Shown here in pieces: positions 5,962 to 63,303 of a stretch of DNA of 64,000 nt (position 1 is the stretch's first letter; every line of letters begins with the position of its first letter). This DNA is from a virus (Duplodnaviria > Caudoviricetes). The notes beneath the pieces were generated by a model, which saw only the letters and a list, made by a program, of their open reading frames with translations, had not been told where the DNA came from and did not search any database. Location: positions 1 to 64,000 of the IMG/VR virus record IMGVR_UViG_2882674194_000007; one strand, given 5' to 3'. A program made the translations under genes and the position numbers.

Positions 5962-6040
5962 ATCCCTATGAAAGAGACATTTTAAAAGTAAAAGAACCTG
6001 TATTTAAACAGGCTCTTAATTATATTATCTTAATATTATC

Positions 6041-6235
6041 TTACGCAAATTTCGGTTTTGACTTTTTCATCGGTATTAACATCCATTTTATTTGTTCTGG
6101 AGAATGATTTTTAATGTGCTCTACAACATACTTGTGAACATCTTCTAAACTGCCAAGATTTACATCCTCAAGAACTCCATACTCTAATGGATCATGTTCA
6201 CTAACACATACTAATTTAAAATAGTAATTATCCAT
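6041..6235 (-). CDS. Hypothetical protein
   Basis: AGGAGGTG RBS; terminator 5991-6017. Confidence 0.7.
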   Translation of the reverse strand: MDNYYFKLVCVSEHDPLEYGVLEDVNLGSLEDVHKYVVEHIKNHSPEQIKWMLIPMKKSKPKFA

Positions 6236-6311
6236 TTATATCACCTCCTGTAAGTTTACATAAATGAATGTATCATATAATAATGTAAAAATATAGAGGT
6301 AATTATTGGTT

Positions 6312-6497
6312 TTATTTATCTAAATTGTTCTTATTAGATTCATGAATCACTTTAGCTAATGAATCCATAAATTTCTTTTCAAGTTCTTCTGGATTTTTAA
6401 TCAGTTCCATAAGCTGCTTATCTGCGAACTGCCAAAATTCCAGTTTCCATTTCACTTCTTTAGTTTTATATAAATACCATCTAAGTAGTGTAATCAT
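6312..6497 (-). CDS. Hypothetical protein
   Basis: ORF coupled to upstream gene. Confidence 0.65.
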   Translation of the reverse strand: MITLLRWYLYKTKEVKWKLEFWQFADKQLMELIKNPEELEKKFMDSLAKVIHESNKNNLDK

Positions 6498-6697
6498 AAT
6501 TTGTCTTCCTTCCTATATACTTTTATGTTCCAGTAATAATCATCATTAGTCCATATGTGGAAATCATCATTATAAGAATCATATTTTATATGTGTTACTT
6601 GTGGACTTGAATTACATATATGTAAATATATGTCTGAATAAATATTGTAATTATGTAATTTTAATACTTGTTCTATTTCGTAAGAGTACATAATCAA
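6494..6697 (-). CDS. Hypothetical protein
   Basis: Overlapping start/stop coupling. Confidence 0.65.
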   Translation of the reverse strand: MIMYSYEIEQVLKLHNYNIYSDIYLHICNSSPQVTHIKYDSYNDDFHIWTNDDYYWNIKVYRKEDKL

Positions 6698-7203
6698 TCA
6701 CCATACATTTTTATTACAGCATCTCCAATACAAATTGCATCAGCTTCGTCATCACCAACATTTAAATCATAATGCTCTTTTACATATTGAATTGCTTGTT
6801 CTTTTAACTGTTCTCTTTTTACATTTTTGCCCTGCGACATATTTATAACTTTACGCCAAGAAGTTGGTCTTATTGTATTAAATTCACAGTCATGATTTAT
6901 ACACCAAGCGTAGATAACCCCTTGTAATCTTGTTAGAAATCTTTGTGTTTGTGCGTTTCTTAATACAACAGTTTCTTCTACATAAACAATATGTGGTTTA
7001 TATAAATCAAGAATTGTCCATAACCTATGTGACATTTCCTCAAAACGTGAATCCATATTTTTATCTTTACTACAGTCTAATAAATGATGCGCTTTATATT
7101 TACCGTTACAAAAATATGCACATCCAGATTTATTCGTTGATGAATCTATTGTGAGAAGTTTTGCACTTATATTAATCGCTCCTTTACTATGTCCTTCATT
7201 CAA
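6694..7203 (-). CDS. RuvC-like Holliday junction resolvase
   Basis: IDSSTNKSG, VYVEE, PTSWRK, DDEADAICIG acidic catalytic motifs. Confidence 0.85.
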   Translation of the reverse strand: MNEGHSKGAINISAKLLTIDSSTNKSGCAYFCNGKYKAHHLLDCSKDKNMDSRFEEMSHRLWTILDLYKPHIVYVEETVVLRNAQTQRFLTRLQGVIYAWCINHDCEFNTIRPTSWRKVINMSQGKNVKREQLKEQAIQYVKEHYDLNVGDDEADAICIGDAVIKMYGD

Positions 7204-7272
7204 AAAATGTCCTTATAATCAAGGACATAATAAAAGAGCGACTTCACATTGAAATCGCCCTTTTAATACTAT

Positions 7273-7845
7273 CTACATCTGAGAAACTTTTTCCCATGTA
7301 TACATTTCTTTTTGTACAACACTGTGGACAAAACTGTTTTTGCCATCGGCTGACTCATATTCCTCAATCAGATCCTCCAATGCTTCCAGTTCCATGTCAT
7401 TAATTTTACCAAGAGAATGATAATACCTATAAGACTGACTTATTTTATCTTTCAGCTCGGCTCTAATTCGTTTATTATTTTTACGTTCACTTTCCTTGAA
7501 ACGTTCATCTGTATTACGTTGCATATCGTCTATTTTTTGTGAGATGCTAGACAACGATTCAGAAAGCTTATTTTGAGCATCTGTTAGTTCTTTCTGAATA
7601 GCAAATGATTGTTCCCTGTCATGAATGCGATTTTCCATTATTGCTTTAATATCGGTTTGATTATCCTTAATAGTTTGCAGTAGTTCTTCTTTATTTTTCT
7701 TTCTATTGTATAAATCATTAAAAAAATCAGAAATTACTTTCCTGTTTTTAATAGTAATCCAACAGAAAAAAATAAGAAGCACAAGCGCAACAAGTACAAT
7801 CATAGGATTAATATTTTCTAGGTATTTAGTTACTAATTCTTCCAT
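7273..7845 (-). CDS. Membrane-anchored coiled-coil protein of the lysis module (holin-like)
   Basis: N-terminal TM, coiled coil, C-terminal Y..ADGKNSFVH; follows endolysin. Confidence 0.65.
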   Translation of the reverse strand: MEELVTKYLENINPMIVLVALVLLIFFCWITIKNRKVISDFFNDLYNRKKNKEELLQTIKDNQTDIKAIMENRIHDREQSFAIQKELTDAQNKLSESLSSISQKIDDMQRNTDERFKESERKNNKRIRAELKDKISQSYRYYHSLGKINDMELEALEDLIEEYESADGKNSFVHSVVQKEMYTWEKVSQM

Positions 7846-7863
7846 TCATATAATTGCCTTTCC

Positions 7864-9114
7864 TTATAAAATCGTAATGTACTTATTAGATACATATCCA
7901 ACAAGATTATCTTTTGTTTTTACCTGATACCATCCGTTAGCGGCACGACCAATAATTTGTACAGTATCATTAACTAGTAGAATACAAACAACATTATTGC
8001 TTTCAACATTTGGTGTATTACGCATATTCAATTTTGTACAATTAACAACTTTTCCAGTATAGCCAAAGGATGTTACATTAGTTGTAGGAATGGATGCAGG
8101 TTTAAAATTGTCAGGAACTTCAACAGTCCATAAATATTTAACCTGTTTTGCAAACAAATCCCATGTATTTTTAATTCGATTTGCTTTTGTTGACGCTGGA
8201 TCATTGATATATACATACCCATTTTCATATTTGTACAAAAGAATAAAATGCCCAGAACTAGTCCAGTTTCCCTTCCCCATGCAAGCAATCACCCAATTAC
8301 CTTTTCTTAAGGCATTTAATGCTTCCGTGTGAGCAGAAGAAGATGACTTGCCATATAGATTTGACTGGTTTAATCTTTTGCAAGTAATATCATATTGATT
8401 AAACTGTGGCACAAAATATGTATAATATGTTCCTTGATTTAAAGCCTTGTATCCATGTGCCATAGACCATTCTGCTGTAGTTATTGGAGTTACATTCCTA
8501 TCTTTTAATGTCGCAATAACCATAGCGGCGACTGTAACACCACACCCAGCACTGCCAATAGTTTTCTTTTCACCTTTTGCAGAATAATTATGATTTTTCC
8601 ATTTGAGGTCAGTTTGAAGATAACTAATAGGTTTGACAAATTTTACTGTACTAGAGGTAGATGGTGATACGAGAACAGTAGAAGATGATGCTGGTTTATC
8701 AAATAATTCTTTTTCAGCAGCACGTCTCTTTACTAGTCCTTGTAACACTTTACCTCCAGATTTGTTATATGCTGTAATTTTTGAACTAATTTCGGAAATA
8801 GTACGTTGTCCATTATTTAATAATGTTTTCAGATTCCCACTACCACAGTTGAAGGTAAAGCTGACAAGTGCATCAAACTGGTTCTGGTTCCAATTGTATT
8901 TAGTATAACTATTTACAGCTTTTTCTGCACTCGCACAGTCAGATTTTAGATAAGCGTCTGCTTGAGACTGAGTAATGGTTTGCCCCATTTTCACCCCGTT
9001 TGTGTGCCCGAATCCAATTGTTGGAATACCAATACTATCTTTATATGCTGTAAGTTTACAACCTTCAAACTTCTTAATTAGAGTAAGTCCATTATTACTG
9101 ATTGATAAACCCAT
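7864..9114 (-). CDS. Multidomain endolysin: GH24 lysozyme, C39-like peptidase, SH3b
   Basis: FEGC..AYKDS.GIPTIGFGH; GCG...GHF...INDP; LNMRNTP...GYVS. Confidence 0.9.
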   Translation of the reverse strand: MGLSISNNGLTLIKKFEGCKLTAYKDSIGIPTIGFGHTNGVKMGQTITQSQADAYLKSDCASAEKAVNSYTKYNWNQNQFDALVSFTFNCGSGNLKTLLNNGQRTISEISSKITAYNKSGGKVLQGLVKRRAAEKELFDKPASSSTVLVSPSTSSTVKFVKPISYLQTDLKWKNHNYSAKGEKKTIGSAGCGVTVAAMVIATLKDRNVTPITTAEWSMAHGYKALNQGTYYTYFVPQFNQYDITCKRLNQSNLYGKSSSSAHTEALNALRKGNWVIACMGKGNWTSSGHFILLYKYENGYVYINDPASTKANRIKNTWDLFAKQVKYLWTVEVPDNFKPASIPTTNVTSFGYTGKVVNCTKLNMRNTPNVESNNVVCILLVNDTVQIIGRAANGWYQVKTKDNLVGYVSNKYITIL

Positions 9115-9936: not shown

Positions 9937-11061
9937 CTATTGTGTGTTAAAATTTCTGAGACTTTCAACACATTGTTTCAATGTTCTGCATACATATTGT
10001 AATTCTTCTTGTGTTTCTTCTCCACTGAATGTCATTCTGATACAACTGTGAATATCTTTATTATCCATACCAATAGTAGATAGAGTAGTAGAGGGAGTAA
10101 GCGAATTACTGTTGCAGGCAGAACCTGTGCTTACTTGGACTCCGTTCATATCAAGAAGAATCATTAAACTTTCACCCTCGACACCTTTAAAACACATGTA
10201 TAGATTGTGTGGCAATCTATTTTCATTGTTTTCAGAACCTATTATGTAAGTGTCCGTAATATTTTTTTTAATATAATGCCATGCATAATCTCTTGCATAA
10301 GAACTAATTTCTTTATAATTTACCAATTCCACAGCTTTACCAATTGAAGCTATCCCTAATATGTTCTCTGTACCTGAAAATAAACCATTTTCTTGACTAC
10401 CATAAACTAAAGGTTCAAGTTCTATATTTTTCTTCTTATATAAAACTCCACAACCTTTTAGCGCATGAATCTTATGTCCACTAAAGCCAAGCATATCAAC
10501 ATCTAACTTTTTCACATCAATCGGAATCGTTGGTATACTGCCAGTACAATCCAAATAGACAATACCATTATATAAATGTGTAATTTTAATAATCTGTTCT
10601 ATATTTTGAATGGTTCCAATTTCAGAATTGGCATGATCTATTACAACGAATGGAGTATCAATACAGACATCCAAATACTGTTCTAAATCATGTATGTCAA
10701 TAATACCTTCTTTATTTACTTTTAACGGAATACTATTATGGTAAGATTCCACACATTTCAAAATGGATTTATGTGCAATGGGAGAATAGAAGAGAGTACA
10801 ATCGTTCTTCTGGAAATACCCTTTAACTGCTAACGTATTGCTTGCTGATCCGCCACTTGTAAAATAAATATCATCTGAATTTGCATTAATAAATTTTGCT
10901 ACTGACTGTCGTGCGTTTGATATAATTTGTTTAGGCTTCTCTGATAAACTATATAAAGAACTAGGATTTCCGAAATCGTCTAATATAGATATTAAATATT
11001 CTTTTACTGAATCTGTTAATTTAGTAGTAGCCGCATTATCTAAATAGATATTTTTTCCCAC
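9937..11061 (-). CDS. iscS: Cysteine desulfurase (IscS/NifS family, PLP-dependent)
   Basis: YLDNAATT, GNPSS, SGHK (PLP Lys), STGSAC (catalytic Cys). Confidence 0.92.
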   Translation of the reverse strand: MGKNIYLDNAATTKLTDSVKEYLISILDDFGNPSSLYSLSEKPKQIISNARQSVAKFINANSDDIYFTSGGSASNTLAVKGYFQKNDCTLFYSPIAHKSILKCVESYHNSIPLKVNKEGIIDIHDLEQYLDVCIDTPFVVIDHANSEIGTIQNIEQIIKITHLYNGIVYLDCTGSIPTIPIDVKKLDVDMLGFSGHKIHALKGCGVLYKKKNIELEPLVYGSQENGLFSGTENILGIASIGKAVELVNYKEISSYARDYAWHYIKKNITDTYIIGSENNENRLPHNLYMCFKGVEGESLMILLDMNGVQVSTGSACNSNSLTPSTTLSTIGMDNKDIHSCIRMTFSGEETQEELQYVCRTLKQCVESLRNFNTQ

Positions 11062-19916: not shown

Positions 19917-21482
19917 CTATATACGATTATCCGTATTGTTTGAATCGTTGCCACGCTGCGTATCTGTAGAAGGAGCCAAATCAGTATCATCATTCATTGG
20001 TCTACCACCTTCTGATCCATCATTAGCAGTAGTGTATGATGTTTTTAATACTTCCCACTTATCATAAATATCTTCTTTGAACATCTGCTCCATAAATGAA
20101 TTTCCAAGCATTTTTGCGGTGTTTACACCAGTTGCGGCTAATAATTCTCCTTTAACTGGTAGAGATGCCTGTGCCAATTTTAATTTCTTTTCTATATAGT
20201 CATCTACGTCAAAGATAGTAACTGGTAAAATTCGATAGACAAATTGATAATCATCATGGATGTGACCACGAAGTTTCATTTGTAAATCCATCCATGATTC
20301 AAGTTGACGATATATACGATAAATATCAGAGGAATCCACTTTCATAGAAAGTTTTAATTCAGAACCGCTAGAAGCAGAAGATATAAGTGCTTTAGATACA
20401 CCAGCTTCTCCATAATAGTTTTCGACAGCCTGTTCAACCTTATTTTTATCATCTGATATAGTAGATTTTGACTCAATAAGTTGCAAATCCATAGGCGAAG
20501 GCACAACGCCAAATCGGTCAGGTAGGATGGATTTTGCCATTTCAACGAATGGATAGATTAACTCATCCCCCATAGTTATATGACCTTCATCATCAACTGG
20601 TATCTTAAAATAAACCAATTTGTATGCGTCTGCTTCTGATTTTGCTTTTACCAAATCTTTTATATCATCTATGTCAAGTATTGAGGCTATCAAAGGAAAG
20701 AATGGACTATACAAATATGTAAAATCATTATTATATTTTAAGCACAATGAATTTTCATATGGAACCATAACCATATTATTCAGAGATAGTTCCTTTGATT
20801 GTTCTAATAATGCTTGTAATTCTAATGGAAGTGTTTGTAAATATGAATTATTCATCAAACTTCGATTGATAGCATATTGATAAATTGAACCATTAGAAAG
20901 TTTCTTGATTTCACAATATCTTGGATCTATAAAAAATATAGAAATATCAGTATCATTTTCTGTTACAAATCCAAAACAAGCATCTTCAAGGAAAAGTTTT
21001 TTCATAATGTCAGTAATCCGATTGTCTAACTTGAATTTGTTTGCTTGCGCTGTGAATTTGACATAATTCTTTTTGAAATCTTTCTGATATTGTTCCTTTG
21101 CTTTATCGGTTTTAGTGGTACAAAACATTTTGTCTTGCTTTATCTCTGTATCAACAGTCCAATTAATAACAGCCATATTAACAAAATAATCAATAAGCCG
21201 TTTGTAATAACCACTTTTCAGATACATATATTGTGATAAACGAATTATAGAACTTCCATACTGTTCAGGATTTTGAACGATACGAAGAATTTGACTTCTT
21301 GTGAATCCACAAATACGATTATATTTAAAAACACCTTTATATGCCAACTCTGATAATGCCAACCGCTTTAAACTTGTAAAGTTGAAAGTCGGTGATTTAC
21401 CATTTAGAAAATCGCTTACGTTATTTTTATCTTCTTGAAACTGTTCTTTTATTGCTCCATTATTATTTGTATTTTCTTCGAT
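19917..21482 (-). CDS. Portal protein (YonE-like), probable AUC start
   Basis: Follows terminase; frame open 40 codons upstream of the TTG at 21362 to an ATC preceded by AGGCGGTGA. Confidence 0.8.
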   Translation of the reverse strand: MEENTNNNGAIKEQFQEDKNNVSDFLNGKSPTFNFTSLKRLALSELAYKGVFKYNRICGFTRSQILRIVQNPEQYGSSIIRLSQYMYLKSGYYKRLIDYFVNMAVINWTVDTEIKQDKMFCTTKTDKAKEQYQKDFKKNYVKFTAQANKFKLDNRITDIMKKLFLEDACFGFVTENDTDISIFFIDPRYCEIKKLSNGSIYQYAINRSLMNNSYLQTLPLELQALLEQSKELSLNNMVMVPYENSLCLKYNNDFTYLYSPFFPLIASILDIDDIKDLVKAKSEADAYKLVYFKIPVDDEGHITMGDELIYPFVEMAKSILPDRFGVVPSPMDLQLIESKSTISDDKNKVEQAVENYYGEAGVSKALISSASSGSELKLSMKVDSSDIYRIYRQLESWMDLQMKLRGHIHDDYQFVYRILPVTIFDVDDYIEKKLKLAQASLPVKGELLAATGVNTAKMLGNSFMEQMFKEDIYDKWEVLKTSYTTANDGSEGGRPMNDDTDLAPSTDTQRGNDSNNTDNRI

Positions 21483-26532: not shown

Positions 26533-26564
26533 ACTTAAGATCCCAATAAAATGCTTATTTGAAG

Positions 26565-26658
26565 CGGTGACGGTAGGATTTGAACCCACAGGTCATGTTT
26601 TCCATGACACATCAGATTTCAAGTCTGCGCCGTTATAACCAGATTTCGGTACGTCACC
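26565..26658 (-). tRNA. tRNA-Ser(UGA)
   Basis: GGTGACG/CGTCACC acceptor, loop CTTGAAA, long variable arm, G73; CCA not encoded. Confidence 0.88.
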
Positions 26659-26785: not shown

Positions 26786-26896
26786 TTACACATTATCGGA
26801 ATTCCAAAGTAAATCTACATCATATTCCTCTAATGATACAGGAACAATTTCGGTTCTATTGTATGTATTCAGAAGTTCAAAAAATAACTTATGCAT
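26786..26896 (-). CDS. Possible 36-aa peptide
   Basis: ATG overlaps the 3' end of the upstream gene; weak support. Confidence 0.3.
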   Translation of the reverse strand: MHKLFFELLNTYNRTEIVPVSLEEYDVDLLWNSDNV

Positions 26897-28565
26897 ACTC
26901 TATATTTTTAGAAATACTGTTTAAATAATCTTCATAATACATCCATCTTAATGATTCTCCTGTTGTTGGATCCTTTCCAGCACTTTTTACAAGACCACTA
27001 CAACACTGCGATAAACCACTCATACTTTTTAATTTAACAAAATTTTGAGCTTCTAATAAGTTATTAAAAATCTGTTTATTATTTAGACAAATAACTTTTT
27101 TATTAATATTCATTCTTTTGACTTCTTTTCTGCTGTTTTGTAATTTTATATATTCTTTCACGTCTTCGTTTGTTTTAAATCTTTCTTTATATTCATTTAA
27201 AAACATCCAACACAATTTTTCTTTTTTATTATTTTTTGTAATATAACCTGCATGTTTTATTTTATGAGAACAGCATTTACCAACAGAATTAATATTAATA
27301 TAATTGTAATCATCAACTATAGATTGAATAGAATTATATACTTTTTGCGTATTTAAACATATTACTTTAACTTCTCGTAATTTTGAATTTTTAATATAAG
27401 AATTATGAATAGTGTAATCACACCAGCCAAGTTCTTTACCAAGTTTCAGATACTTGACAATTGTAGATCTATCTAATTTATAATACTCTGCAATTTGCCT
27501 TGTACTTAAATTTGTATTTACATTATAATAATTACATACTTGTTTTACTAAAGAACTAAATATTTTAGAATTTATTGATTTTTCATCTATTGACGAAAAA
27601 TCAAATATATTAATCAAAATACTGTTCTTTATATTTTCCATAATATAATTAAAGTCGCTTTTTTGACTATCAATTCTTATCATTATATAATTATTTTCTT
27701 TTGCTAATATATCCTTTTTCTTGTCAATAATTCTTATATCTTCTGTAGAAAATTTTGAATCTTTATATGCTTTTTTATGAAATCCACCATCCATTTCTAT
27801 AAGGTATTTCATATTCCCATTTTTAAAATATATATCATATATTGGTTTATAATCTCTATTTTTAAAACTAAATGATTTGTCTTTTATCTGATATTGAGGA
27901 ATATAATTTACATTTAAATCATCTAAAATACTAATCATCATTTTTTCTGGATAACTAAAACCATCACTACATCGTGGACAATTGAATAGTTGATATTTGC
28001 ACATAGAAAAAATAGTTGTGTATTTTTCAAATCCACAATCAGGACATTTCAACCAAACTTTTTGCCCAGATCCATAAGAATATTTATAAGCGTCTTCTTT
28101 ATGTTTAAAATATTTTATTAAATGTGGGTGAGTAGTAGCTATATCATTAATACCCTTAATTATAATTTTATTTGTACATACTGCACAATGATGTTTTTTA
28201 TTTAAATCATATTCTAATATCAACCTAATATATCCACATTTTGCACATTTTACTTGGTAGTATTTAGAACCATTTATTCTTTCTTGTGAAAGAATTATAT
28301 TATTGTTTATGGTTTCGTTTGTTTTGAATAAAAAATCTTTTGATATAATTTTATATATTTTACCATCTTTAAAACTTTTTCTGCGAGTTATATAATCTTG
28401 ACCATTATATGAAACAATAATATTCTGTGCATTTGCATCAAGCGACTTTATGGTGAATAAATATTCCTTGTCATTATATAAGACTTTTACATTTTTACCT
28501 ATATTCTTGCTCCATATTATTTTATTTGCCGCTTTGATTAAATTATCGTCTATTAATTTATTCAT
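26889..28565 (-). CDS. Free-standing homing-endonuclease-like protein (zinc ribbons, Vsr/DUF559-like nuclease, NUMOD1 repeats)
   Basis: NDIATTHP...VWLKCPDCG; YDIYF...LIEMDGGFH; two KVICLN..K..N repeats; very AT-rich. Confidence 0.75.
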   Translation of the reverse strand: MNKLIDDNLIKAANKIIWSKNIGKNVKVLYNDKEYLFTIKSLDANAQNIIVSYNGQDYITRRKSFKDGKIYKIISKDFLFKTNETINNNIILSQERINGSKYYQVKCAKCGYIRLILEYDLNKKHHCAVCTNKIIIKGINDIATTHPHLIKYFKHKEDAYKYSYGSGQKVWLKCPDCGFEKYTTIFSMCKYQLFNCPRCSDGFSYPEKMMISILDDLNVNYIPQYQIKDKSFSFKNRDYKPIYDIYFKNGNMKYLIEMDGGFHKKAYKDSKFSTEDIRIIDKKKDILAKENNYIMIRIDSQKSDFNYIMENIKNSILINIFDFSSIDEKSINSKIFSSLVKQVCNYYNVNTNLSTRQIAEYYKLDRSTIVKYLKLGKELGWCDYTIHNSYIKNSKLREVKVICLNTQKVYNSIQSIVDDYNYININSVGKCCSHKIKHAGYITKNNKKEKLCWMFLNEYKERFKTNEDVKEYIKLQNSRKEVKRMNINKKVICLNNKQIFNNLLEAQNFVKLKSMSGLSQCCSGLVKSAGKDPTTGESLRWMYYEDYLNSISKNIEYA

Positions 28566-29557: not shown

Positions 29558-29598
29558 TTATTCACCAACTTTCTTTTAGTAATTTCAAATTTGTATAA

Positions 29599-29681: not shown

Positions 29682-29770
29682 ATGAAAATAGGAGAGTTCC
29701 GAAGACTCTCCTGAATATTCTGTCTTTCCAGAACGCCAGACTGTACTACAGTTCATTTGTTAATTATATA

Positions 29771-34580: not shown

Positions 34581-34581
34581 G

Positions 34582-46188: not shown

Positions 46189-46217
46189 TTGACAAGTAAA
46201 ACGCAATATGCTATTAT
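46189..46217 (+). promoter_or_regulatory. Sigma-A-type promoter
   Basis: TTGACA-17-TATTAT with upstream TG. Confidence 0.7.
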
Positions 46218-46224
46218 ATACTTG

Positions 46225-47015
46225 TAAGGAACACAAGGGAATATAAATCGGTATCACGGCAGTGTCAATAAGACCTGATACATTCTCAACATGGCAGCGT
46301 CAATAAGTCCAGGAGCGATAAAAAGAAAAATCCCAGTTCCAAACGAAACCGGGAAATTTCAAGTAAGTGTGTAAAACTCTTACCCTAAGCAAGTAGAGTA
46401 TAACACAATTCTTGATAATCTGTCAATCGGCAGAAATTTCCCAAAACAAAGTAACTATTAACGTCCTGTCAAGTGGAGTGCTAACAGGATCGTAACTAAG
46501 GCAAAGCAACAAGAGATTGCAAACGAGGTTAGAGAAAAGATAATTGATTCATTAAATTTCCGCAACCTAACGGGAAAACGTGACAGATAGCAGCGTAAAA
46601 ATGTTATCCGTGTTGACTGGACACGCTGACTACATCGGAGACGTGATAGTTCATATCATATCAGACGTAGCAGGGAATACCATCCCAAACCAGAAAATCT
46701 ATGAATATGTGTGAATGCGAGTAGGCAGAAACAAGAGTTTTGCGGTGACTGATTCTGAAACCGTGACCTGTGGGGTGTGGTAGCCGTAACGGGAACGAGA
46801 GACAATCTACTATAATATAGATGGCTCTTTTGATGATAATTTATCGCTGTAGAGGATGGACGGGGAGAAAACACAAAACGATAGACTATATAAAATGGTA
46901 GTTGTAAACCGTGGTTATGGAAGGCTGAGAAATACGTCTTCCAACCGCTAATAAGCGGTATATAAATATACATAAGAACCTTTAGAGAGTGTCAAGAACC
47001 TTTGGCACTCTCTTT
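46225..47015 (+). ncRNA. Putative large structured RNA or leader (~790 nt)
   Basis: Promoter, no + ORF, GC-richer with many hairpins, terminator AGAGAGTGTCAA...TTGGCACTCTCTTTT. Confidence 0.55.
46320..46390 (-). ncRNA. Putative short antisense RNA
   Basis: TTGACA (46426-46421)/TGnTATACT (46402-46397), terminator TCCCGGTT...AACTGGGA plus U tract. Confidence 0.55.
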
Positions 47016-47024
47016 TATATTAAA

Positions 47025-47652
47025 AGCGGTCAACTGCTTTTCAAAAGAAATGTGATGTTCAAGCGAGAAGGAAAAGAGAAATAAGTATTACATCCTGTAA
47101 GGGCTGCCCATGTGGTCATAAGTGCATATATCAGGCACAAGGAAAAGTGATAACCCGTGACACAAGCTTTTTTACATTTGAAAGATTGCACGTATAAAGA
47201 AGGAAGTAAAAATGTAGCGCAAGATAAGGGCGTTAAACTTTCAATCGCTCAAGATCGGCAATGCGATTAATAAATTGTGCCGGCATTGTGTGAAAGCAGG
47301 TATCACACTTACAATGATTACCGCCACAAAGATTTGAGTGTAATAAAATCTGAAAAGTCAGTAAAAGGCGTGGGACTACTGGAGAAGATAATAAACACGA
47401 CAGGCGAACCCCTGAAAAGGAAGAAGGTTATACTATAACTGTAAACTTAAAAAGCTGCTGTCTGGATGCCTGACATATACGGCATATTACATAATTTTAT
47501 TATTTATCATGCCCATAAAAACAGAATCAAACGTGAGGCGGTGCGGAAAGCTGGTGAACCACTCAATACAATGAGGACATAGCCATAAAGCCGGATGCAT
47601 TTAGCCATATCCTTTGAAAAGTCTCTTTTGTGGGCATGGATAAGTAATAAAA
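47025..47652 (+). ncRNA. Second putative large structured RNA region
   Basis: ORF-free, multiple hairpins, ~27-bp stem 47496-47521/47626-47652. Confidence 0.45.
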
Positions 47653-48490: not shown

Positions 48491-48522
48491 GCAATGAAAC
48501 AATTATTTGAAGGGAGAAAACT

Positions 48523-48979: not shown

Positions 48980-50662
48980 GTGGAAATTATGTCAAATTAT
49001 TATGATTATAGAGAAGTAAAGGTTATGATCGCTCACAAACTTATGTCTATGGAAGGCTGGAAAGTATACGGCTATAAAGAAGACAGAAGCGACAGTATGA
49101 CCGATTATTATGATCCTGCTAATTGGGACGGAGTAGCAGAAAAGAACGGCTATATTTTATGCGTAGATGTTTACGGCGCAGCAGAACCGCAGGAAATCAG
49201 AAAATATAATTACTCTGGTTTTACATATGATCGCAGCATAGCGGAAAAAATCAAAAAGTTGGAAGCTATGACCGTTGAACGTGGAGCTTCTGAAGCAGAG
49301 GAAGCAAGCGCAAAATTATCTATTGAACGTTTGCAGAAAAAAGCAGAAGAAGCAACGGAAAACGCAAATAAATATATTGTTGTTGGTACAGTTCCCGGAC
49401 ATATGGCACACCCTCCAAAAATGAATTGGCATATTGAAAAAGATGGGATCATCATTGCAAAGGGTAACGGCATTTTGAAATTTGCCCATATCTGGAAATA
49501 TTACAATTATAACCGTGATATGGAATGGTTAAACGAATATAAGAAGGACAAAAAAGCATATACCGATAAGCACACACAAGACCTTGTAAACCGTGGATAT
49601 TATGACAGTAAGGAAGACGCAAGAAAGAATACAGAAAGACATATTGAGGATTTAGAGGAAGATATTAAGCTGATAGATAAGTTTGAGACATTCATCAATA
49701 AAATTGATACTTCTTGTGGCGGTTTAATTGGAGAAGGTGACGGCACTATCTACGAAAAAGTTACCGTTACAGAATACAAAAAAGAAAATAAAGTTGTAGA
49801 AGATACGACTGGAAGCATTAAAGAGGGTCAGCTTTTCATTCTGAAATCTAATTTTAATTATGGATGTTATAAAGGGCTTGTATATCGTATCCATGAAACA
49901 GAGAGAAACGGACAGAAACATTTTCATGCTTATAAACTAAATGGAAAACTTACAAAGGAATGTACAGGAAACGCAAGCCGTAATAACTATTGGTTTGTTG
50001 GTAGTGGTGATTCTGAATGCCTCACAAAATGGATTGAAAAGGGTTCTATTGCATGGTGTCATATTGAAGAGGTAAAAACGCCATATGAGGTGGAAAAGGT
50101 TGTAAAAAAGACTATTAAAGCAGAAAAGAAAAATACGACATCTACCACAACGGAAACGGCACAAACAGAGGAAACAGACGTAAACGCCTATGCATATGAA
50201 GTATCAGAAGACACGGACACACGTACAGGAGAAAAAATATATCTTGTGAAGGTTGCGGAAAAATTGAGCCGTGAAGAGTATATAACCGTAAACAAGTATA
50301 TTAAATCTTTGGGCGGTTATTACTCGAAATTTAAACACGCCTTCTTATTTAAGGAAAATCCGGCAGAAAAGTTGAACACAACTATAGTGGAAACTACACA
50401 GACGGCAGAACCGGCACAGGAAGCACAAAGCACAAGGGAAGAACCAGAAGCGAAAAAAGAAAGTATTTCCTATACAATTATAGAAGATCAGCACACGCAA
50501 ACACACGCGAAAATCTGGATTGTAAAGCCTGAAAAGGAATTAAACAAGACGGATTTTGCAGAGGTTAAGCGGAAACTTGCAACGCTACAAGGCTACTATA
50601 GCACATTCAAACACGGATTTATTTTTAAATATAATCCAAAGGAAGTATTACAGACTGGATAA
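48980..50662 (+). CDS. Multidomain early protein (DUF2786-like segment, two C-terminal repeated domains; polyvalent-protein-like)
   Basis: KIKKLEAM...GASEAEE; tandem (G/Q)GYYS.FKH.F.FK domains. Confidence 0.75.
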   Translation: MEIMSNYYDYREVKVMIAHKLMSMEGWKVYGYKEDRSDSMTDYYDPANWDGVAEKNGYILCVDVYGAAEPQEIRKYNYSGFTYDRSIAEKIKKLEAMTVERGASEAEEASAKLSIERLQKKAEEATENANKYIVVGTVPGHMAHPPKMNWHIEKDGIIIAKGNGILKFAHIWKYYNYNRDMEWLNEYKKDKKAYTDKHTQDLVNRGYYDSKEDARKNTERHIEDLEEDIKLIDKFETFINKIDTSCGGLIGEGDGTIYEKVTVTEYKKENKVVEDTTGSIKEGQLFILKSNFNYGCYKGLVYRIHETERNGQKHFHAYKLNGKLTKECTGNASRNNYWFVGSGDSECLTKWIEKGSIAWCHIEEVKTPYEVEKVVKKTIKAEKKNTTSTTTETAQTEETDVNAYAYEVSEDTDTRTGEKIYLVKVAEKLSREEYITVNKYIKSLGGYYSKFKHAFLFKENPAEKLNTTIVETTQTAEPAQEAQSTREEPEAKKESISYTIIEDQHTQTHAKIWIVKPEKELNKTDFAEVKRKLATLQGYYSTFKHGFIFKYNPKEVLQTG

Positions 50663-50716
50663 TATAAAGGCGGTTGAAATATACCGACTTGCATAATGAA
50701 AGGAATGATTTTTTAT

Positions 50717-52357
50717 ATGTTTACAGGTAATAAAGACTTTTACCCTACACCACAAAATATTATTGACAAGATGCTTTTTGATTTAGATTTTACAATGATA
50801 AAAAGTATTTTGGAACCATCGGCGGGTAAGGGGGATATAGTTGAGACATTAAAGAAGAAAGAAGGAAACCATAATAAATATTATGGCAAACAATACTATC
50901 AGTTTGATATTGATTGTATAGAAGCTGATCAGAATCTGCAGCATATTCTTAAAGGGAAAAATTTCCGTGTTGTTTATAATGATTTTCTTACATATAACAC
51001 GATGAAGGAATACGATCTAATTATTATGAATCCGCCTTTTTCTAACGGTTGCAAACATCTTTTAAAGGCTTTAGAAATGCAACAAAGAAATGGCGGTGCG
51101 GTTGTGTGTCTTCTCAATGCGGAAACTTTAAAAAATCTATGTACAAATGATAGGCAGTATTTACAGCGTAAACTCACAGAATATAACGCAAAAATTGAGT
51201 TTATACAAAATGCTTTTCTGGATGCGGAACGGAAAACGGCGGTTGAAATTGCGCTTGTAAAGGTTCAGCTTCCAGAGGTGCAAAGAGAATCTTTTATATT
51301 GGAAAGATTAAGAAAAGCAAAAGATCAAAAAGAATTTCAGGCAGAGGAAAGCACAAAACTAATTGATAGTGATTTTTTCAAGGCTATTGTAAAACAATAT
51401 CAGTTAGAAGTGGAAGCAGGAATAAAATTGATTAAAGAATATTATGCAATGCAGCCGTTTATTTTGTCACAGTTTGGAAAAGACGAAAAGACAGGGGAAA
51501 CGATACAAAAAGGCGGCTGTATTATCTCCATGACTTGTAGTAAAAATGGGCTTTCTGTTAATGAATATATAAAAATGGTGCGGAGTAAATATTGGAATGC
51601 ACTTTTTGAAAATAAAAGATTTATAGGGCAGCTTACAAATAATCTGCAAAGAGATTTTTATAATAAAGTGGAAGAATTAAGTAACTATGATTTTTCACTT
51701 TATAATATCTACCAGTTAAAAATTGATATACAGAAAAAAGTTGTTAAAGGAATAGAGGATACCATAATAGATCTTTTTGATGAATTAAGTTATAAATACC
51801 ATTGGCTTGATGAAACGTCAAAAAACATTCACTATTACAATGGATGGAAAACAAACAAGGGATGGATAATCAATAAAAAAGTGATTATTCCTTTAAATGG
51901 TTTTTATGACCTTAATTATTCATGGGGAGGATTCAGACCGTCAAGGCATGATGTTGTAAGTAAATTACAGGATATAGAAAAATGTTTTAACTATCTTGAT
52001 GGAGGGCTAACAGAAGCGGTTGATCTGGAAGAATCCCTAAAGTTTGCAGAGGAATACGGAGAGACAAAGAATATACAGTTAAAGTATTTTACTGTCACAT
52101 TCTACAAAAAAGGTACATGTCATATTGTATTTAACAATGACGAGTTACTGAAAAAATTTAATATATTTGGTTCTCAGCACAAAGGATGGTTGCCACCTTC
52201 CTACGGAAAGAAGGATTATAAAAATATGACAGCAGAAGAAAAAGCAGTTGTAAATGAGTTTGAAGGAGAAAAAGAGTATAGCAAAGTTATTTCTAATAAA
52301 GAGTATTACTTGTTTGATGGAAATAATCTGAATTTACTGGAAGAGAAAACGGCATAA
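50717..52357 (+). CDS. N6-adenine DNA methyltransferase with DUF4942 domain
   Basis: DFYPTP, LEPSAGKG, MNPPF, FYKKGTCHI. Confidence 0.85.
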   Translation: MFTGNKDFYPTPQNIIDKMLFDLDFTMIKSILEPSAGKGDIVETLKKKEGNHNKYYGKQYYQFDIDCIEADQNLQHILKGKNFRVVYNDFLTYNTMKEYDLIIMNPPFSNGCKHLLKALEMQQRNGGAVVCLLNAETLKNLCTNDRQYLQRKLTEYNAKIEFIQNAFLDAERKTAVEIALVKVQLPEVQRESFILERLRKAKDQKEFQAEESTKLIDSDFFKAIVKQYQLEVEAGIKLIKEYYAMQPFILSQFGKDEKTGETIQKGGCIISMTCSKNGLSVNEYIKMVRSKYWNALFENKRFIGQLTNNLQRDFYNKVEELSNYDFSLYNIYQLKIDIQKKVVKGIEDTIIDLFDELSYKYHWLDETSKNIHYYNGWKTNKGWIINKKVIIPLNGFYDLNYSWGGFRPSRHDVVSKLQDIEKCFNYLDGGLTEAVDLEESLKFAEEYGETKNIQLKYFTVTFYKKGTCHIVFNNDELLKKFNIFGSQHKGWLPPSYGKKDYKNMTAEEKAVVNEFEGEKEYSKVISNKEYYLFDGNNLNLLEEKTA

Positions 52358-52391
52358 AGCCGATGAAATTGTAATTTGAAGGGAAAAACAC

Positions 52392-53394: not shown

Positions 53395-53637
53395 ATGACT
53401 AAAATAGAATATAGTAAATGTGTGAAACTTATGGAAGAAGCCATCTGGAAAGCCAATAATTCTAATGAGGATTATAGGGCATATGAGCGTTTGAAAAAAG
53501 AAGGGAAAAGTGTTGATGCAGAATGTAAGTTACGTGTAGCAGATCAAGAAATTGGATATGCAGAAGGAATAAATCAGGCACTTGCTACACTTGGCTTTAA
53601 ACATGACAGAATGAAGGAATTATCTGAGTTGCTGTAA
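53395..53637 (+). CDS. Hypothetical protein
   Basis: RBS. Confidence 0.7.
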   Translation: MTKIEYSKCVKLMEEAIWKANNSNEDYRAYERLKKEGKSVDAECKLRVADQEIGYAEGINQALATLGFKHDRMKELSELL

Positions 53638-53665
53638 ATCGTGTATTTCATTGGAGGGAATAAAG

Positions 53666-53935
53666 GTGGAAAGGGTTTTAATTTTTAAATATCCGATTGA
53701 ATTTTCGGATAAAGTAAAGCAAATAAAAGAAGCATTTAAAATTCATAACATAGAGTTTATATGTTATGAATCAAACGGATATTATGATCATGAATTTATG
53801 GTCAGAAAGTCAGGTAAAAGATGGAATGATATATATACTATTATTAATTCTGTTAGACCAGCAAAGTATGAGTTTAAGAAGACTTGTATTGAAGTGATAA
53901 ATGGAGAATTAAAAGAGATAGTATATTGTCAATGA
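53666..53935 (+). CDS. Hypothetical protein
   Basis: GGAGG RBS then GTG. Confidence 0.65.
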   Translation: MERVLIFKYPIEFSDKVKQIKEAFKIHNIEFICYESNGYYDHEFMVRKSGKRWNDIYTIINSVRPAKYEFKKTCIEVINGELKEIVYCQ

Positions 53936-53967
53936 AACTACTGATTCAACCATAGAAGGGATAAAGC

Positions 53968-55234: not shown

Positions 55235-55456
55235 ATGAAACATAAAGAACTTTATGATGCTATTACAGATTTTCGGATAAAATATGGTAGCCGGAAATTT
55301 AATGATGATGAAAATATGACAGCATATAGAAATCTTGTTGATATGTCTATTAAGTGTGGAATTATACCAGAATGTAATAGGAAAGAATATTCTACACATG
55401 GGAGATTAATGGCAGCTATCACATATGAAGGTAATAGAATAGCATTTTGCCAATGA
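55235..55456 (+). CDS. Hypothetical protein
   Basis: GGAGG RBS. Confidence 0.7.
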   Translation: MKHKELYDAITDFRIKYGSRKFNDDENMTAYRNLVDMSIKCGIIPECNRKEYSTHGRLMAAITYEGNRIAFCQ

Positions 55457-55483
55457 AAGAATCGTTTGAACGGAGGAAAATTT

Positions 55484-56369: not shown

Positions 56370-56404
56370 ACGGATGAATCAATGGATTCATGGAAGGAGA
56401 AGTT

Positions 56405-56817: not shown

Positions 56818-56867
56818 GTAACAAAAGGCAAGGAAATAATGATTTTAAGTAGAAAGAGAGGAAAACT

Positions 56868-57392: not shown

Positions 57393-57426
57393 AAGTCAAT
57401 AAAAACACAATTTTGAGGAGGAATAT

Positions 57427-57601: not shown

Positions 57602-57844
57602 ATGGCTCAATATGGAATAAGTGTAAGGGAAATTTTGAAGAGAACTGTTATTGTAGAAGCGGAAAGTCTTGAGGAAGCAATACAGAAAGTAGAAGATGCT
57701 GTGGAACGTGAGGAAATCATTCTGGATGTAGATGATTATGACGATCGGGAAATTGTACCGTCTGAATATTTTGGTAACGGCTCAGGAGAAGTTCCTGAAG
57801 GGGAAGATGTTAGTTCCTATTGGCACATTGGAGAAGATAATTGA
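57602..57844 (+). CDS. DpnD/PcfM-like protein
   Basis: Y.ISVRE.L.RTVIVEAESLEEA...IILD.DD. Confidence 0.7.
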   Translation: MAQYGISVREILKRTVIVEAESLEEAIQKVEDAVEREEIILDVDDYDDREIVPSEYFGNGSGEVPEGEDVSSYWHIGEDN

Positions 57845-57878
57845 GTACTTAGATTCAGGATTTTGTGAGGGAATAAAT

Positions 57879-59633: not shown

Positions 59634-59679
59634 AACATACAATGAATTTCGCATTTCAAAGCTAAAATGGGAGGTTATT

Positions 59680-60636: not shown

Positions 60637-60747
60637 TAGGCAATGAAATGTACCTTTTTAGTCCTTTTAATCGGACACATATAATAGTATAATGGAAACA
60701 TAAACGAACAGATCAAAGTCCTACATAGTAGGCAGAAAGGAAAATAT

Positions 60748-61208: not shown

Positions 61209-61251
61209 ACAGAAAAGGATTATTTCATTGAGAAAATTGGAGGGTTAAAAT

Positions 61252-61578
61252 ATGAGATATACAGAAAGCATTGAAGTTTGTGATGTATGTGGAAAAAGAT
61301 TTTTTGGTTCATCAATAAATATTCATGGTTCATATGATTATATTAATCATACAAATTTTTCAAATAATATAGGAACATTATTTGCTTGGACTAAAGAACT
61401 TTCTGGAAGTGAAAGAGTAGATGCAATCGTAGAAGAATTTTTTAATGACGATGAGCAAATTAGTAAGGAGGATGCTATTGAATTTTTAGAATGCTTTAAA
61501 CACTATAATTATCCTGATAGACAGTTATTAAATGAAGTGTTTAAGAAAATACAAGATAGAATTGATAATATGGATTGA
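61252..61578 (+). CDS. Hypothetical protein
   Basis: GGAGG RBS. Confidence 0.7.
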   Translation: MRYTESIEVCDVCGKRFFGSSINIHGSYDYINHTNFSNNIGTLFAWTKELSGSERVDAIVEEFFNDDEQISKEDAIEFLECFKHYNYPDRQLLNEVFKKIQDRIDNMD

Positions 61579-61644
61579 AATGATTGTTCTATTTGGAAGT
61601 TGATAAAAATATATAATATGAAAAATGGGAAAGAAGGGAAAATA

Positions 61645-62193
61645 ATGGTTGAAGTTATTCAGAATCCAGGCGCAGAAAAGAGTTTTGGGAGTATAGAATT
61701 GGCAGAAAATAATATTAAAAAATTTATTGAAGATTCAGGAATTTATTTTGAATATGAATATAGTGGTCAGAGATTAAACGGAAGATTTGTATTTAATCTT
61801 ATTCATAAAAATATATCCTATGAAATAGGAATGGTGGGAGAAAATATTGAGTCTGTAAGATATATTGATGGGTATACACAAAATATTTGGGATTATCCTA
61901 GATTATATGTCAATGGAAATTCTTATGTATGGTTGTATGCCTTGAAAAATGTTACAGGAGAAACAGAAAAAGAATTATTATTTAGGCTTGGAGTCAATTA
62001 TGATAGAGTATGCAAATTCCAGAAAGTATTGCAAATTGCAAAAGAATGTGGTGCTTGTCCTAAAAGTAAAATGAGTTTTAATGAAATAAAGAAAAAAGTA
62101 GTGGCAGATGAACAAGCGTTGTATAATTATTGTGTTTCAGAATTTCCATGTGAATCCAATAAGTGTGAAATGGATCTTTATTTATTAAAATAA
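61645..62193 (+). CDS. Hypothetical protein
   Basis: Open frame; start uncertain. Confidence 0.65.
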   Translation: MVEVIQNPGAEKSFGSIELAENNIKKFIEDSGIYFEYEYSGQRLNGRFVFNLIHKNISYEIGMVGENIESVRYIDGYTQNIWDYPRLYVNGNSYVWLYALKNVTGETEKELLFRLGVNYDRVCKFQKVLQIAKECGACPKSKMSFNEIKKKVVADEQALYNYCVSEFPCESNKCEMDLYLLK

Positions 62194-62274
62194 AATATTC
62201 ATATAATAGTAATTTGTGTGTGGTTAGAAGGCATTAGTTATAGGAATTAATGCCTTTTATAGTACACACAGATA

Positions 62275-62292
62275 GCAACTATTTATAGTTGC
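62275..62292. promoter_or_regulatory. Palindromic operator of the hicAB promoter
   Basis: GCAACTAT-TT-ATAGTTGC overlapping the -35 box. Confidence 0.6.
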
Positions 62293-62337
62293 ATATTTTC
62301 TCGCAGAGTGGTATATTATATCTAAAGGAGAAATGTC

Positions 62338-62589
62338 ATGAGTAAGAAAGATAAATTGATAGATAGATTACTGAAGAAACCGAAAGACTTTACTTTTGAT
62401 GAAATGGAATCCTTGCTGTCATATTTTGGGTATGAATTAAAACAGGGTGGAACTGGGTCGGGAGTAAAATTTATAAAAGATGGAAGTAATGAAGCAATAA
62501 ACTTCCATAAACCGCATCCAAGTGGAATATTAAAGAGGTATGTGTTGGATCAGGTAATAGAGAAATTAAGAAAGGATGGTTCGCTATGA
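62338..62589 (+). CDS. hicA: HicA-family toxin
   Basis: GTGS...NFHKPHP...LK.Y. Confidence 0.88.
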   Translation: MSKKDKLIDRLLKKPKDFTFDEMESLLSYFGYELKQGGTGSGVKFIKDGSNEAINFHKPHPSGILKRYVLDQVIEKLRKDGSL

Positions 62590-62921
62590 GTAATTTGTTA
62601 TCATATAAGAATTACAACGGTACAGTAGAGTATTCAAAAGAAGATAGTTGCCTTTTCGGAAAGGTAGTTGGAATAAAATCTTTATTGTCTTATGAAGGAA
62701 ATTCTGTACAGGAATTAGAACAAGATTTTCAGAATGTGATTGATGAATACTTAGAGGACTGTAAGGAACGGAATGTAGAGCCTGAACAGCCTTACAAGGG
62801 AACATTTAATGTCAGGATCAGTCCAGAACTTCATCGGAATATTGCCGTATATGCTATTGAACACGGTAAGAGTCTAAATGCTGCTGTTGAGGAAGCTATT
62901 GGAAATATGGTTAGAGCGTAG
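62586..62921 (+). CDS. hicB: HicB-family antitoxin
   Basis: YKNY.G.VEYS...KGTFNVRISPELH...SLN. Confidence 0.9.
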   Translation: MSNLLSYKNYNGTVEYSKEDSCLFGKVVGIKSLLSYEGNSVQELEQDFQNVIDEYLEDCKERNVEPEQPYKGTFNVRISPELHRNIAVYAIEHGKSLNAAVEEAIGNMVRA

Positions 62922-62932
62922 GGAGGTTCTTT

Positions 62933-63229
62933 ATGGAACAATATGAATATGATGATGTATTTTGTGTTGATTGTAATGGATATAGAAGACAAATATTAGC
63001 TGGGGAAAACATATATGATGGAATGTTGAGATACATTTGTACAGAATGTGGATGTGAAAACAACGTAGAAGATAAAGAATATAAAAATATGATTGATACC
63101 TTGAAAAATATTGGAGAAAAAGGTATGTCAGAAAGCAATATTTCTTTAACAGAATATTCTGAAATGCTAAAAGTGTTATGTAATAAATATGGAGAGGAAA
63201 AAGTTAAAAAAGATTTAGGAATGAAATAA
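62933..63229 (+). CDS. Zinc-ribbon hypothetical protein
   Basis: CVDC...CTECG. Confidence 0.7.
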   Translation: MEQYEYDDVFCVDCNGYRRQILAGENIYDGMLRYICTECGCENNVEDKEYKNMIDTLKNIGEKGMSESNISLTEYSEMLKVLCNKYGEEKVKKDLGMK

Positions 63230-63303
63230 TAGTTTTAACTGATGAAACGTATATTTAGTTGCAAAATGGATATATCTATGGTAAAGTGTAAAAGAGGTGA
63301 TAT

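Follow-up and report, generated by a model that had tools for sequence, protein, structure and literature searches.

The 64,000-nt stretch of DNA analysed here (positions 1 to 64,000 of IMG/VR virus record IMGVR_UViG_2882674194_000007; hereafter the window) carries copies of a 16-bp quasi-palindrome in the gaps between its genes, each with two inverted 5-bp arms around a variable 6-bp spacer. The motif is real and phage-specific, it acts as double-stranded DNA, and homology between related phage genomes breaks inside it, at partners that had the same spacer. We judge it an even call that the copies are core-type sites for conservative site-specific recombination, which would serve natural, slot-wise cassette exchange between related phages. 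A preliminary description of the window had listed 23 copies, with the letters correct at all 23, and had proposed an integron-like system. That interpretation is partly supported, exchange at the sites being borne out and the likeness to integrons not.

The window corresponds to bases 153-64152 of a 177-kb contig (C133). The first ~149 kb of this contig have a G+C content of 32%, while the last 28 kb have 48-50%, as in the remaining 4.8-Mb assembly. The low-GC ~149 kb is a prophage of SPbeta-like design in a Lachnospiraceae host from the mouse gut (Q, the query phage, which holds the window); its left end is absent from the contig. The late arm, on the minus strand, carries tail, lysin, portal and terminase genes together with a YonO-like single-chain RNA polymerase. 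The early arm, on the plus strand from 46 kb of the window onward, has ~180 mostly small genes, including those for DnaB, the Pol III alpha subunit, ligase and NrdD/NrdG. When 41 kb of the window were compared by megablast with 50,697 phage records, nothing matched; relatives of Q were found in Lachnospiraceae genomes and mouse-gut metagenomes. Four related proviruses (G1, G2, G3 and G5; 96-159 kb) were taken whole for comparison, and a second set of 75 loci was fetched via a different anchor gene. The relatives are divergent in protein sequence, with a BLASTP match for just 32-69 of the 254 genes per genome, the genes having been called by an ad hoc caller. Cultured Lachnospiraceae also carry related prophages with the motif, as in isolate B68, where 21.6 kb hold 4 exact sites; Lacrimispora sp. 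HJ-01 likewise has a relative of the phage.

An intergenic palindrome with a fixed 6-bp spacer is enriched in the prophage

The consensus is W-TGAAA-N6-TTTCA-W, with TRAAA as the half-site and a spacer of exactly 6 nt. The arm pattern first proposed, TGAAA-N6-TTT(C/G)A, was right in so far as TTTCA is the consensus right arm, while TTTGA is a minor variant. About 30-35 sites are present in Q, in short gaps between co-directional genes of the early arm. Within the window alone the enrichment claimed for the motif is only marginal: the pattern as first written has 7 matches against 2.15 expected, with 7 or more in 3 of 100 shuffles, and with one mismatch allowed the 58 matches are not significantly above the 45.6 expected. 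Over the whole 149-kb phage, in contrast, the enrichment is unambiguous. When all 4-mer dyads at spacings of 3-10 were counted in the intergenic DNA of the phage, the three overlapping dyads that make up the motif ranked 1-3 (TGAA-N8-TTCA, 16 observed against 0.88 expected; GAAA-N6-TTTC, 14 against 0.82; TTGA-N10-TCAA, 8 against ~0.9). Exact TGAAA-N6-TTTCA occurs 14 times, against ~0.7 from base composition, and 12 of the 14 copies are intergenic. The remaining 4.67 Mb of the assembly, although ~30x larger, contain 13 exact copies and show no peak at spacing 6; a host regulon was ruled out on this ground. The relatives hold 11, 18, 4, 3 and 19 exact copies (4-19 in the four proviruses), compared with 0-1 for a reversed control. 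A spacing test over the five genomes gave 66 exact copies for N6 and 2-10 for every other spacing from 0 to 12.

The motif is therefore clear over the whole phage, but many of the copies listed in the preliminary description are loose: against TGAAA-N6-TTTCA, one has 0 mismatches and nine have 1, while over half have 2 (eleven copies) or 3 (two copies). The placement given for them, at or just after a stop codon and before the next ribosome-binding site (RBS), holds for most sites, which lie -3 to +12 nt from the stop codon and 14-34 nt ahead of the next start. Sites with at most one mismatch mark 31 of 191 junctions in the early arm and 3 of 45 in the late arm, and the motif marks about 1/6 of junctions across the whole phage clade. 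One exact copy lies inside a gene, that of a conserved 309-aa protein (C133 65385-66314), and is retained in G1 and G5.

A sister clade has arms of the form RGAAA-N6-TTTCY, with 11-15 copies per genome compared with 0-2 for the control, and such a clade-specific variant argues for a co-evolving protein. No enrichment of the motif was detected in SPbeta (9 copies, 9 in the control), Thomasclavelia phage TR-TP1 or Enterocloster phage PMBT24.

The site acts as DNA rather than as an RNA hairpin, promoter or terminator

The two dominant variants of the motif, G2>A (TAAAA left arm) and C15>T (TTTTA right arm), are mirror images. Relative to the direction of transcription they are enriched to a similar degree (40 against a background of 5.5 and 32 against 11.8). 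In RNA one of them would give an A-C mismatch and the other a G-U pair, so the symmetry favours a DNA site. Positions -1 and +16 are always A/T and do not pair (52 Watson-Crick combinations, 78 non-pairs). Conservation spans 16-18 bp, with pairing and covariation absent outside the 5-bp arms and within the loop. Predicted RNA folds mostly range from 0 to -2.3 kcal/mol, with z-scores near 0, and are seldom more stable than shuffles; the exceptions are the sites at 56375 (-6.5 kcal/mol) and 58163 (-4.6 kcal/mol). An Rfam search of the window returned three tRNAs only, with no match at the sites. Collectively, these data show that the site acts as double-stranded DNA.

We also considered a small hairpin between cistrons of the polycistronic early mRNA, with a role in processing, stability or translational coupling or as the target of an RNA-binding protein. 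The position between the stop codon and the next RBS of co-directional genes and the two noticeable folds would suit such an element, but the equal enrichment of the A-C mismatch variant on the sense strand, the lack of covariation and the shuffle-like folding make it very improbable. A hairpin would also leave unexplained why the loop sequences are unique, conserved and colinear, as described below.

Between 45 and 64 kb, no sigma-70 promoters or intrinsic terminators were found at motif copies, where stems are weak and lack a T-run, and promoter-like sequences are not enriched (89 against 93.7 expected). This bears on the PeSL cassettes of T4-type phages, which carry functional sigma-70 promoters and terminators and recombine by homology (PMC2839356, PMC4122927). 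As in those phages, a repeated intergenic motif occurs here in a hyperplastic region of small unknown genes for which modular shuffling between related phages can be proposed, and TTGAAA resembles a -35 hexamer. Unlike PeSL, however, the sites contain neither promoter nor terminator and lie too near the following start codon, and they have recombinase-core geometry with site-specific centres. Gene shuffling by regulatory cassettes of this kind (early promoter plus terminator stem-loop) is the least probable explanation that we weighed. A promoter for the YonO-like RNA polymerase was rejected, as the motif sits in the arm opposite the late operon; YonO of SPbeta transcribes the late operon only, from a single start (PMC5467207).

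Spacers are unique within a genome and colinear between genomes

The five genomes contain 136 intergenic sites with 87 distinct spacers, and no spacer is duplicated within a genome. Between genomes there are 65 pairs with identical spacers, whereas 2.9 would be expected and 2000 permutations gave 11 at most. The order of shared spacers is the same in each comparison (13 shared between Q and G1, 16 between Q and G5 and 14 between G1 and G5), with a Kendall tau of 1.00 for each. The 75 further loci gave a similar picture: no locus has a duplicate spacer, the order was consistent for 53 spacer pairs and inconsistent for none, and 454 matches were in the same orientation compared with 12 in reverse complement. 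None of the 173 distinct spacers is palindromic. Recurring spacers are found in the sister clade as well, where TTGTAA, the spacer of site 52364, occurs with variant arms (G008, G009). Of the 16 early-arm sites listed for the window, 15 have a spacer that recurs at a site in 1-6 other genomes.

Homology between relatives breaks inside the site

In 49 of the 65 same-spacer pairs, both neighbouring genes are non-homologous. Stretches between shared sites can either be aligned, at 84-97% identity, or bear no relation to each other and differ in length, and the consecutive slots CCGAAA>GCGTTC>TTCTTA have three unrelated fillings in Q, G1 and G5. Sequence identity ends 1-2 nt beyond the 16 bp, and BLAST blocks stop right after a site or start right at one.

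Site pairs that are orthologous by one flank only were then chosen blind to the spacer. The spacer was identical in 187 of the 199 pairs that combine a homologous left flank with an unrelated right one, and in 163 of the 186 pairs of the opposite kind. Grouped by slot, 33 of 49 slots had identical spacers only and 7 had a replaced spacer. Arm identity was 77-78% for the arm on the homologous side and 54% and 44% for the far arm, on the unrelated side; in a related test on the arms the odds ratio was 3.65 (p = 7e-12). For pairs homologous on both sides, spacer divergence is 1.1% compared with 5.5% in the flanks. Identical spacers with either flank, together with a swapped far arm, place the homology break inside the 16-bp site, between the spacer and the far arm, and indicate that the partners had the same spacer. 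As a footprint this fits what tyrosine-recombinase strand exchange over a 6-bp overlap would be expected to leave; no such footprint would result from crossovers confined to the arms or scattered at random over the gap.

Candidate recombinases and other conserved proteins

The preliminary description had pointed to an intact tyrosine recombinase in the late arm, and the gene at 30683-31636 indeed encodes an apparently intact Xer/YopP-like enzyme in which the catalytic residues can be aligned. Its best matches are to the XerA/XerC/XerD models, below their cut-offs (102.8 bits vs 220), and it is 23% identical to YopP of SPbeta. Homologues are present in G1, G2 and G3, with 62% identity to that of G2. 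A second internal recombinase, encoded in the early arm, is 98% identical in G3; G1, G2 and G5 have a different, longer recombinase at this place. In both kinds of internal enzyme, late-arm and early-arm, from Q, G1, G2, G3 and G5, the catalytic set R...HxxR...H/W...Y is represented by aligned R, HxxR, H and Y residues. At least two matches to the phage-integrase family were found in each of ten genomes, most of which combine an end integrase with one internal enzyme per arm, the late-arm one being Xer-like. No clean co-variation of any recombinase family with arm type was found.

The enzyme acting at the sites is probably one of the two conserved non-integrase tyrosine recombinases. Exchange may be catalysed by the late-arm enzyme, perhaps aided by an HU/IHF-like protein encoded two genes away, or by the second internal recombinase. 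The HU/IHF-like protein matches the NCBIfam HU-alpha/beta and IHF models with E = 1e-23 to 1e-29, below cut-offs, and is conserved in G1, G2 and G3. A search for other conserved binders gave leads only. The 309-aa protein mentioned above (L001:1385-2314) is present in all five genomes, and in its nearest Atlas clusters 13-20% of the members bear DUF6551 or ParB_N. A clade-conserved protein of 211 aa (C133 82332-82967; L001:18332-18967) has a weak match to a phage sigma factor (PHROG 1740, E = 9e-6).

A model of slot-wise exchange, and what weighs against it

As the preliminary description had noted, the motif has the anatomy of tyrosine-recombinase core sites. In these, inverted arms enclose an asymmetric overlap whose length is fixed at 6-8 bp; here the centre is 6 bp and asymmetric. 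We propose that the two inverted arms (W-TGAAA and TTTCA-W) would be bound by protein and that the 6-bp overlap region between them would serve as the address of each site. Because overlaps differ within one genome, the sites there could not recombine together, and no deletions or inversions would arise. Same-address sites of related phages, for example of an infecting phage and a resident prophage, would recombine, and spacer identity would be mechanistically required. A single exchange would yield a recombinant with everything left of the site from one phage and everything right of it from its partner, whereas two exchanges would swap the gene block between two addresses with gene order intact. 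The data point to exchange of the same slot between two related phages, with order kept and spacers matched, and not to the free excision and insertion of single-gene cassettes that had been suggested.

A broader form of this proposal, which we put forward tentatively and at somewhat less than even chance, is that the prophage clade keeps a genome-wide scaffold of dozens of mutually orthogonal sites, whose common arms would be read by one recombinase and whose 6-bp overlaps would give the position, allowing homology-free, order-preserving swaps slot by slot. No description of such a system was found in the literature searched.

Several observations weigh against site-specific exchange. Q, G1, G3 and G5 are fairly close, with 80-97% identity in shared DNA, so part of the spacer sharing reflects simple descent, and the distant G2 shares just 2 spacers, about chance level. 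The late-arm enzyme is only 23% identical between Q and G1 or G3 despite identical arms, and the early-arm internal enzymes are of two unrelated types; given this divergence, we infer rather than observe which enzyme is involved. Many of the pairs counted in the one-flank comparison are non-independent, falling in 49 slots, and recombination by short homology across the 16-18 identical bp would produce an identical footprint. A four-gamete test on 9 frequent spacers in the 75 loci yielded no quartet. Finally, breakpoints among relatives had been expected to fall at the motif. Homology does break at or inside sites, but synteny breaks are equally common elsewhere, affecting 11 of 12 junctions with the motif and 81 of 108 without it (Fisher p = 0.29, in a test of weak power because the base rate of breaks is too high). 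The motif is thus not needed for mosaicism in general, and other routes dominate overall mosaicism; the sites are one exchange route and not the sole one.

Public mouse-gut data, two metatranscriptome runs and two DNA runs, contain the region as contigs only and are uninformative on RNA ends and expression. The joints in these contigs correspond to replaced blocks, some with edges at sites (48492, 48520 and 61213) and many with edges elsewhere. One DNA contig (run X6) has only 48492-48520 in common with the window, a 29-bp island of site 48495 plus RBS between unrelated flanks.

Such islands are also what would be expected if the sites were boundary sequences for general or phage-encoded homologous recombination, with single-strand annealing over 16-20 bp of identity and no dedicated enzyme. 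This corresponds to the classical linker model of modular phage evolution, which has been discussed for other phages (PMC3029335). Unrelated genes are indeed separated by identity islands of 16-20 bp here, and a crossover in a short identical tract gives the same one-flank footprint, with the identical spacers of 350 of the 385 one-flank pairs looking alike under either process. Like the linkers of lambdoid phages and mycobacteriophages, the sites are short conserved sequences exactly at the junctions of mosaic modules (PMC3029335). Those linkers, however, are rare, heterogeneous and thought to act by homology, whereas a single palindromic consensus with fixed spacing is seen here. The linker model does not explain why the same palindromic arms occur at exactly 6-bp spacing across genomes whose shared proteins are ~33-40% identical, nor the clade-specific arm variants, and conserved genes offer far longer and better homology. 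We regard it as improbable.

Another explanation is that the sites are operators for a dimeric DNA-binding regulator of the phage. A lysogeny repressor or a roadblock silencing the early arm could act at the sites, with recombination as a by-product of the identical islands or of a hotspot at protein-bound DNA. The sites are symmetric and double-stranded with a fixed spacing of one helical turn, they are phage-specific and almost confined to the early arm, and the clade-specific arm variant implies a co-evolving protein, all of which would suit an operator. There is also a precedent in the same phage family: MrpR (YopR) of SPbeta, a protein with a tyrosine-recombinase fold, binds SPBRE, a 15-bp non-palindromic promoter-associated element repeated at ~10 intergenic places in the early arm (PMC10516654). 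Against this, the spacer of a simple operator should drift, but here it is 5x less divergent than the flanks, unique per genome and never palindromic. The sites lie off promoter-like sequences and too near the next start codon to precede a transcription start. In addition, MrpR has lost its catalytic residues, whereas the internal recombinases retain them, and BLASTP of the early-arm recombinases against YopR detected no similarity, so that no MrpR homologue was found by this search. We consider operators unlikely, but worth keeping in view ahead of the linker model. Equivalence with SPBRE itself was ruled out on sequence, since the element upstream of the seven MrpR-bound genes examined has an AATATGTATA-like core, unrelated to the motif.

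Comparison with known recombination systems

In logic, the closest counterpart of the proposed site-specific exchange is engineered recombinase-mediated cassette exchange with heterospecific lox or FRT sites. These have identical arms and differing spacers; only sites with equal spacers recombine, and a segment is swapped without deletion or inversion. The spacers described here are likewise unique within a genome and matched between genomes. Unlike the engineered systems, the one proposed here would be natural. Each genome has ~30-35 addresses, the family as a whole no fewer than 170 distinct spacers, and the arms have 5-6 conserved bp as opposed to 13 bp. Xer/dif cores (XerC/D, XerH, XerS, XerA) also have inverted arms around a 6-bp centre, and the candidate late-arm enzyme has an N-terminal SAM-like core-binding domain. 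However, Xer systems use one site per replicon for dimer resolution, whereas dozens of sites with different centres occur here, and the candidate enzyme is far below the Xer cut-offs and closer to YopP.

Integrons resemble the early arm in having small, mostly unknown genes separated by tyrosine-recombinase-type sites, as a reservoir of accessory genes. In the integron-like system first proposed, attC-like cassettes would be excised as circles and inserted by an integron-type integrase. Sites that recur at gene junctions, the presence of tyrosine recombinases and the very fluid gene content between sites would be in keeping with this. In integrons, attC sites are 57-141-bp folded single-stranded substrates at the 3´ end of the cassette, circles enter at attI, and the order changes. 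The sites described here are instead 16-bp duplexes in conserved order. Pairing is confined to the 5-bp arms and conservation to 16-18 bp, and the R''/L'' and L'/R' box structure of attC was not found. A site segregates with the upstream or the downstream block and is not fixed at a cassette 3´ end, so a constant polarity of site to cassette is lacking. With the integron integrase model TIGR02249 (integrase_gron), the window recombinase scored 31.9 bits and the end integrase 54.8 against a cut-off of 265, while the early-arm recombinase gave no match. No attI or Pc was found beside the window recombinase, which belongs to the opposite strand block, with ~17 kb between it and the array. A true integron-like system is thus largely refuted, and we give it slightly less weight than even the RNA hairpin. 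REP/RAYT-type palindromes were rejected as well, as covariation is absent and folding weak; a non-exhaustive search found no HUH transposase among the proteins scanned.

It is a long-standing question how phage genomes swap unrelated genes precisely at gene borders and yet remain colinear. Of the two classical answers, one invokes short conserved linkers and the other illegitimate recombination with subsequent selection. In the present case the element at the junctions is explicit, abundant and conserved, with recombinase-core anatomy and a per-site address, which makes the question directly testable. If the scaffold proposal is true, it would amount to natural multiplex cassette exchange and to a new, enzyme-driven explanation for ordered phage mosaicism. 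Confirmation would add a third kind of natural cassette system to integrons and shufflons, would account for the very high accessory-gene turnover in a widespread family of gut prophages, and would provide many naturally orthogonal sites for a single recombinase, of use in multiplex genome engineering.

Individual sites and other features of the prophage

The sites of the window and the features discussed above are collected in Table 1. At site 53933, homology to L022 starts exactly at the site, and the ATTCA variant of the right arm goes with the homologous right flank. The preliminary description had also listed copies at the ends of late-arm genes. These late-arm sites are few and weak, and cross-genome support is lacking for that at 5969, as it is for the early-arm copy at 63243; the one at 30664 has an exact copy carrying the same spacer in G3.

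Table 1. Motif sites and associated features. Positions are those of the window unless contig C133 is named, in which case the alternative locus coordinates follow in brackets.
Feature	Position	Strand	Spacer	Remarks
Site	48495-48510		CAATTA	1 mismatch (TTTGA arm); between stop codon and next RBS; spacer also in G1, L008, L010
Site	52364-52379		TTGTAA	Directly after conserved methyltransferase gene; spacer kept in G1, G3, L008, L010, L022 with different downstream gene
Site	53635-53650		CGTGTA	2 mismatches (TAAAT arm); spacer also in sites of 6 other sequences
Site	53933-53948		CTACTG	Right arm ATTCA; TGA is stop codon of upstream gene
Site	55454-55469		GAATCG	TGA is stop codon of upstream gene; spacer in G5, G3, L022 with three different right arms and unrelated flanks
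Site	56375-56390		CAATGG	Symmetric arm variant TGAAT/ATTCA; spacer also in G1, G5, L010, L022
Weak site	56832-56847		TAATGA	2 mismatches; spacer also in 3 sequences; AT-rich, possibly a chance match
Doubtful site	57400-57415			3 mismatches; same spacer in only one other genome
Doubtful site	57842-57857			3 mismatches (TGAGT/ATTCA)
Exact site, TTGAAA-tcggaa-TTTCAA	58163-58178		TCGGAA	Spacer in G1 and G3, both flanking genes non-homologous
Site	59643-59658		TTCGCA	Left arm TGAAT; G3 homology stops just past site; spacer in 5 sequences
Weak site	60644-60659		TGTACC	2 mismatches; spacer also in G3, G5
Site	61212-61227		GGATTA	2 mismatches; spacer in G1, G3, G5; joint in X6 contig resumes at 61213
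Site	61576-61591		TGATTG	2 mismatches; spacer in G1, G3, G5
Site	63222-63237		TAATAG	Right arm TTTTA; spacer in G5 and G3, flanks unrelated
Probable chance match	63243-63258			2 mismatches; no cross-genome support
Late-arm site	21436-21451			1 mismatch; orthologous in G3
Late-arm site	30664-30679			1 mismatch; 4 nt downstream of recombinase stop codon; exact same-spacer copy in G3 at 42378
Late-arm exact site	34379-34394			Near tRNA-Ile; spacer common to G3, left flank identical
Xer/YopP-like tyrosine recombinase, candidate enzyme	30683-31636	-		317 aa; Pfam Phage_integrase and Phage_int_SAM_1
HU/IHF-family DNA-bending protein, possible accessory factor	32439-32714	-		91 aa; two genes from recombinase
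Two conserved methyltransferase-like genes	48980-52357	+		Anchors for fetching relatives
Second internal tyrosine recombinase	C133 68519-69379 (L001:4519-5379)			286 aa; without N-terminal core-binding domain; ~70-aa tail
Right prophage end	C133 147801-149400 (L005:3801-4973)			390-aa integrase, then G+C jump from 32% to 50% and host genes (AraC-type regulator, alpha-amylase)

At the head of the early arm, ~1.4 kb (46189-47650) lack a sense open reading frame. At 46189 this region has a promoter close to the consensus, TTGACA-17-TATTAT with TG upstream, and a strong hairpin resembling a terminator spans 46984-47013. The region is without an Rfam match and shows strong strain variation, with several skips or replacements in the mouse-gut contigs.

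In the late arm, the minus-strand gene at 36098-38788 encodes an 896-aa protein that matches a eukaryote-type RNA-dependent RNA polymerase family and PHROG 8308, and is distantly similar to YonO of SPbeta and to the 'RNA-dependent RNA polymerase' genes of the Thomasclavelia and Enterocloster phages. This is presumably the phage's own late-gene RNA polymerase. The three tRNA genes of the window are also on the minus strand of the late arm (Ser-TGA, 26564-26658; Tyr-GTA, 29598-29682; Ile-TAT, 34581-34656), and between tRNA genes lies a gene for a 558-aa HNH/homing-endonuclease-like protein (26889-28565, minus strand; PHROG 4538 and 559; DUF4379 zinc finger). Amid the late structural genes, 9937-11061 (minus strand) encodes a class-V aminotransferase resembling the cysteine desulfurases IscS/NifS, an uncommon cargo for a phage, and 7864-9114 (minus strand) a lysin with three domains, phage lysozyme, C39-like peptidase and SH3. 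Beyond the window, C133 98448-100646 (L002:14448-16646) encodes a 732-aa protein in which kinase (AAA_33), metallophosphatase and T4-type RNA ligase 1 are fused, and which looks like an RNA-repair enzyme of the type used by phages against anticodon nucleases.

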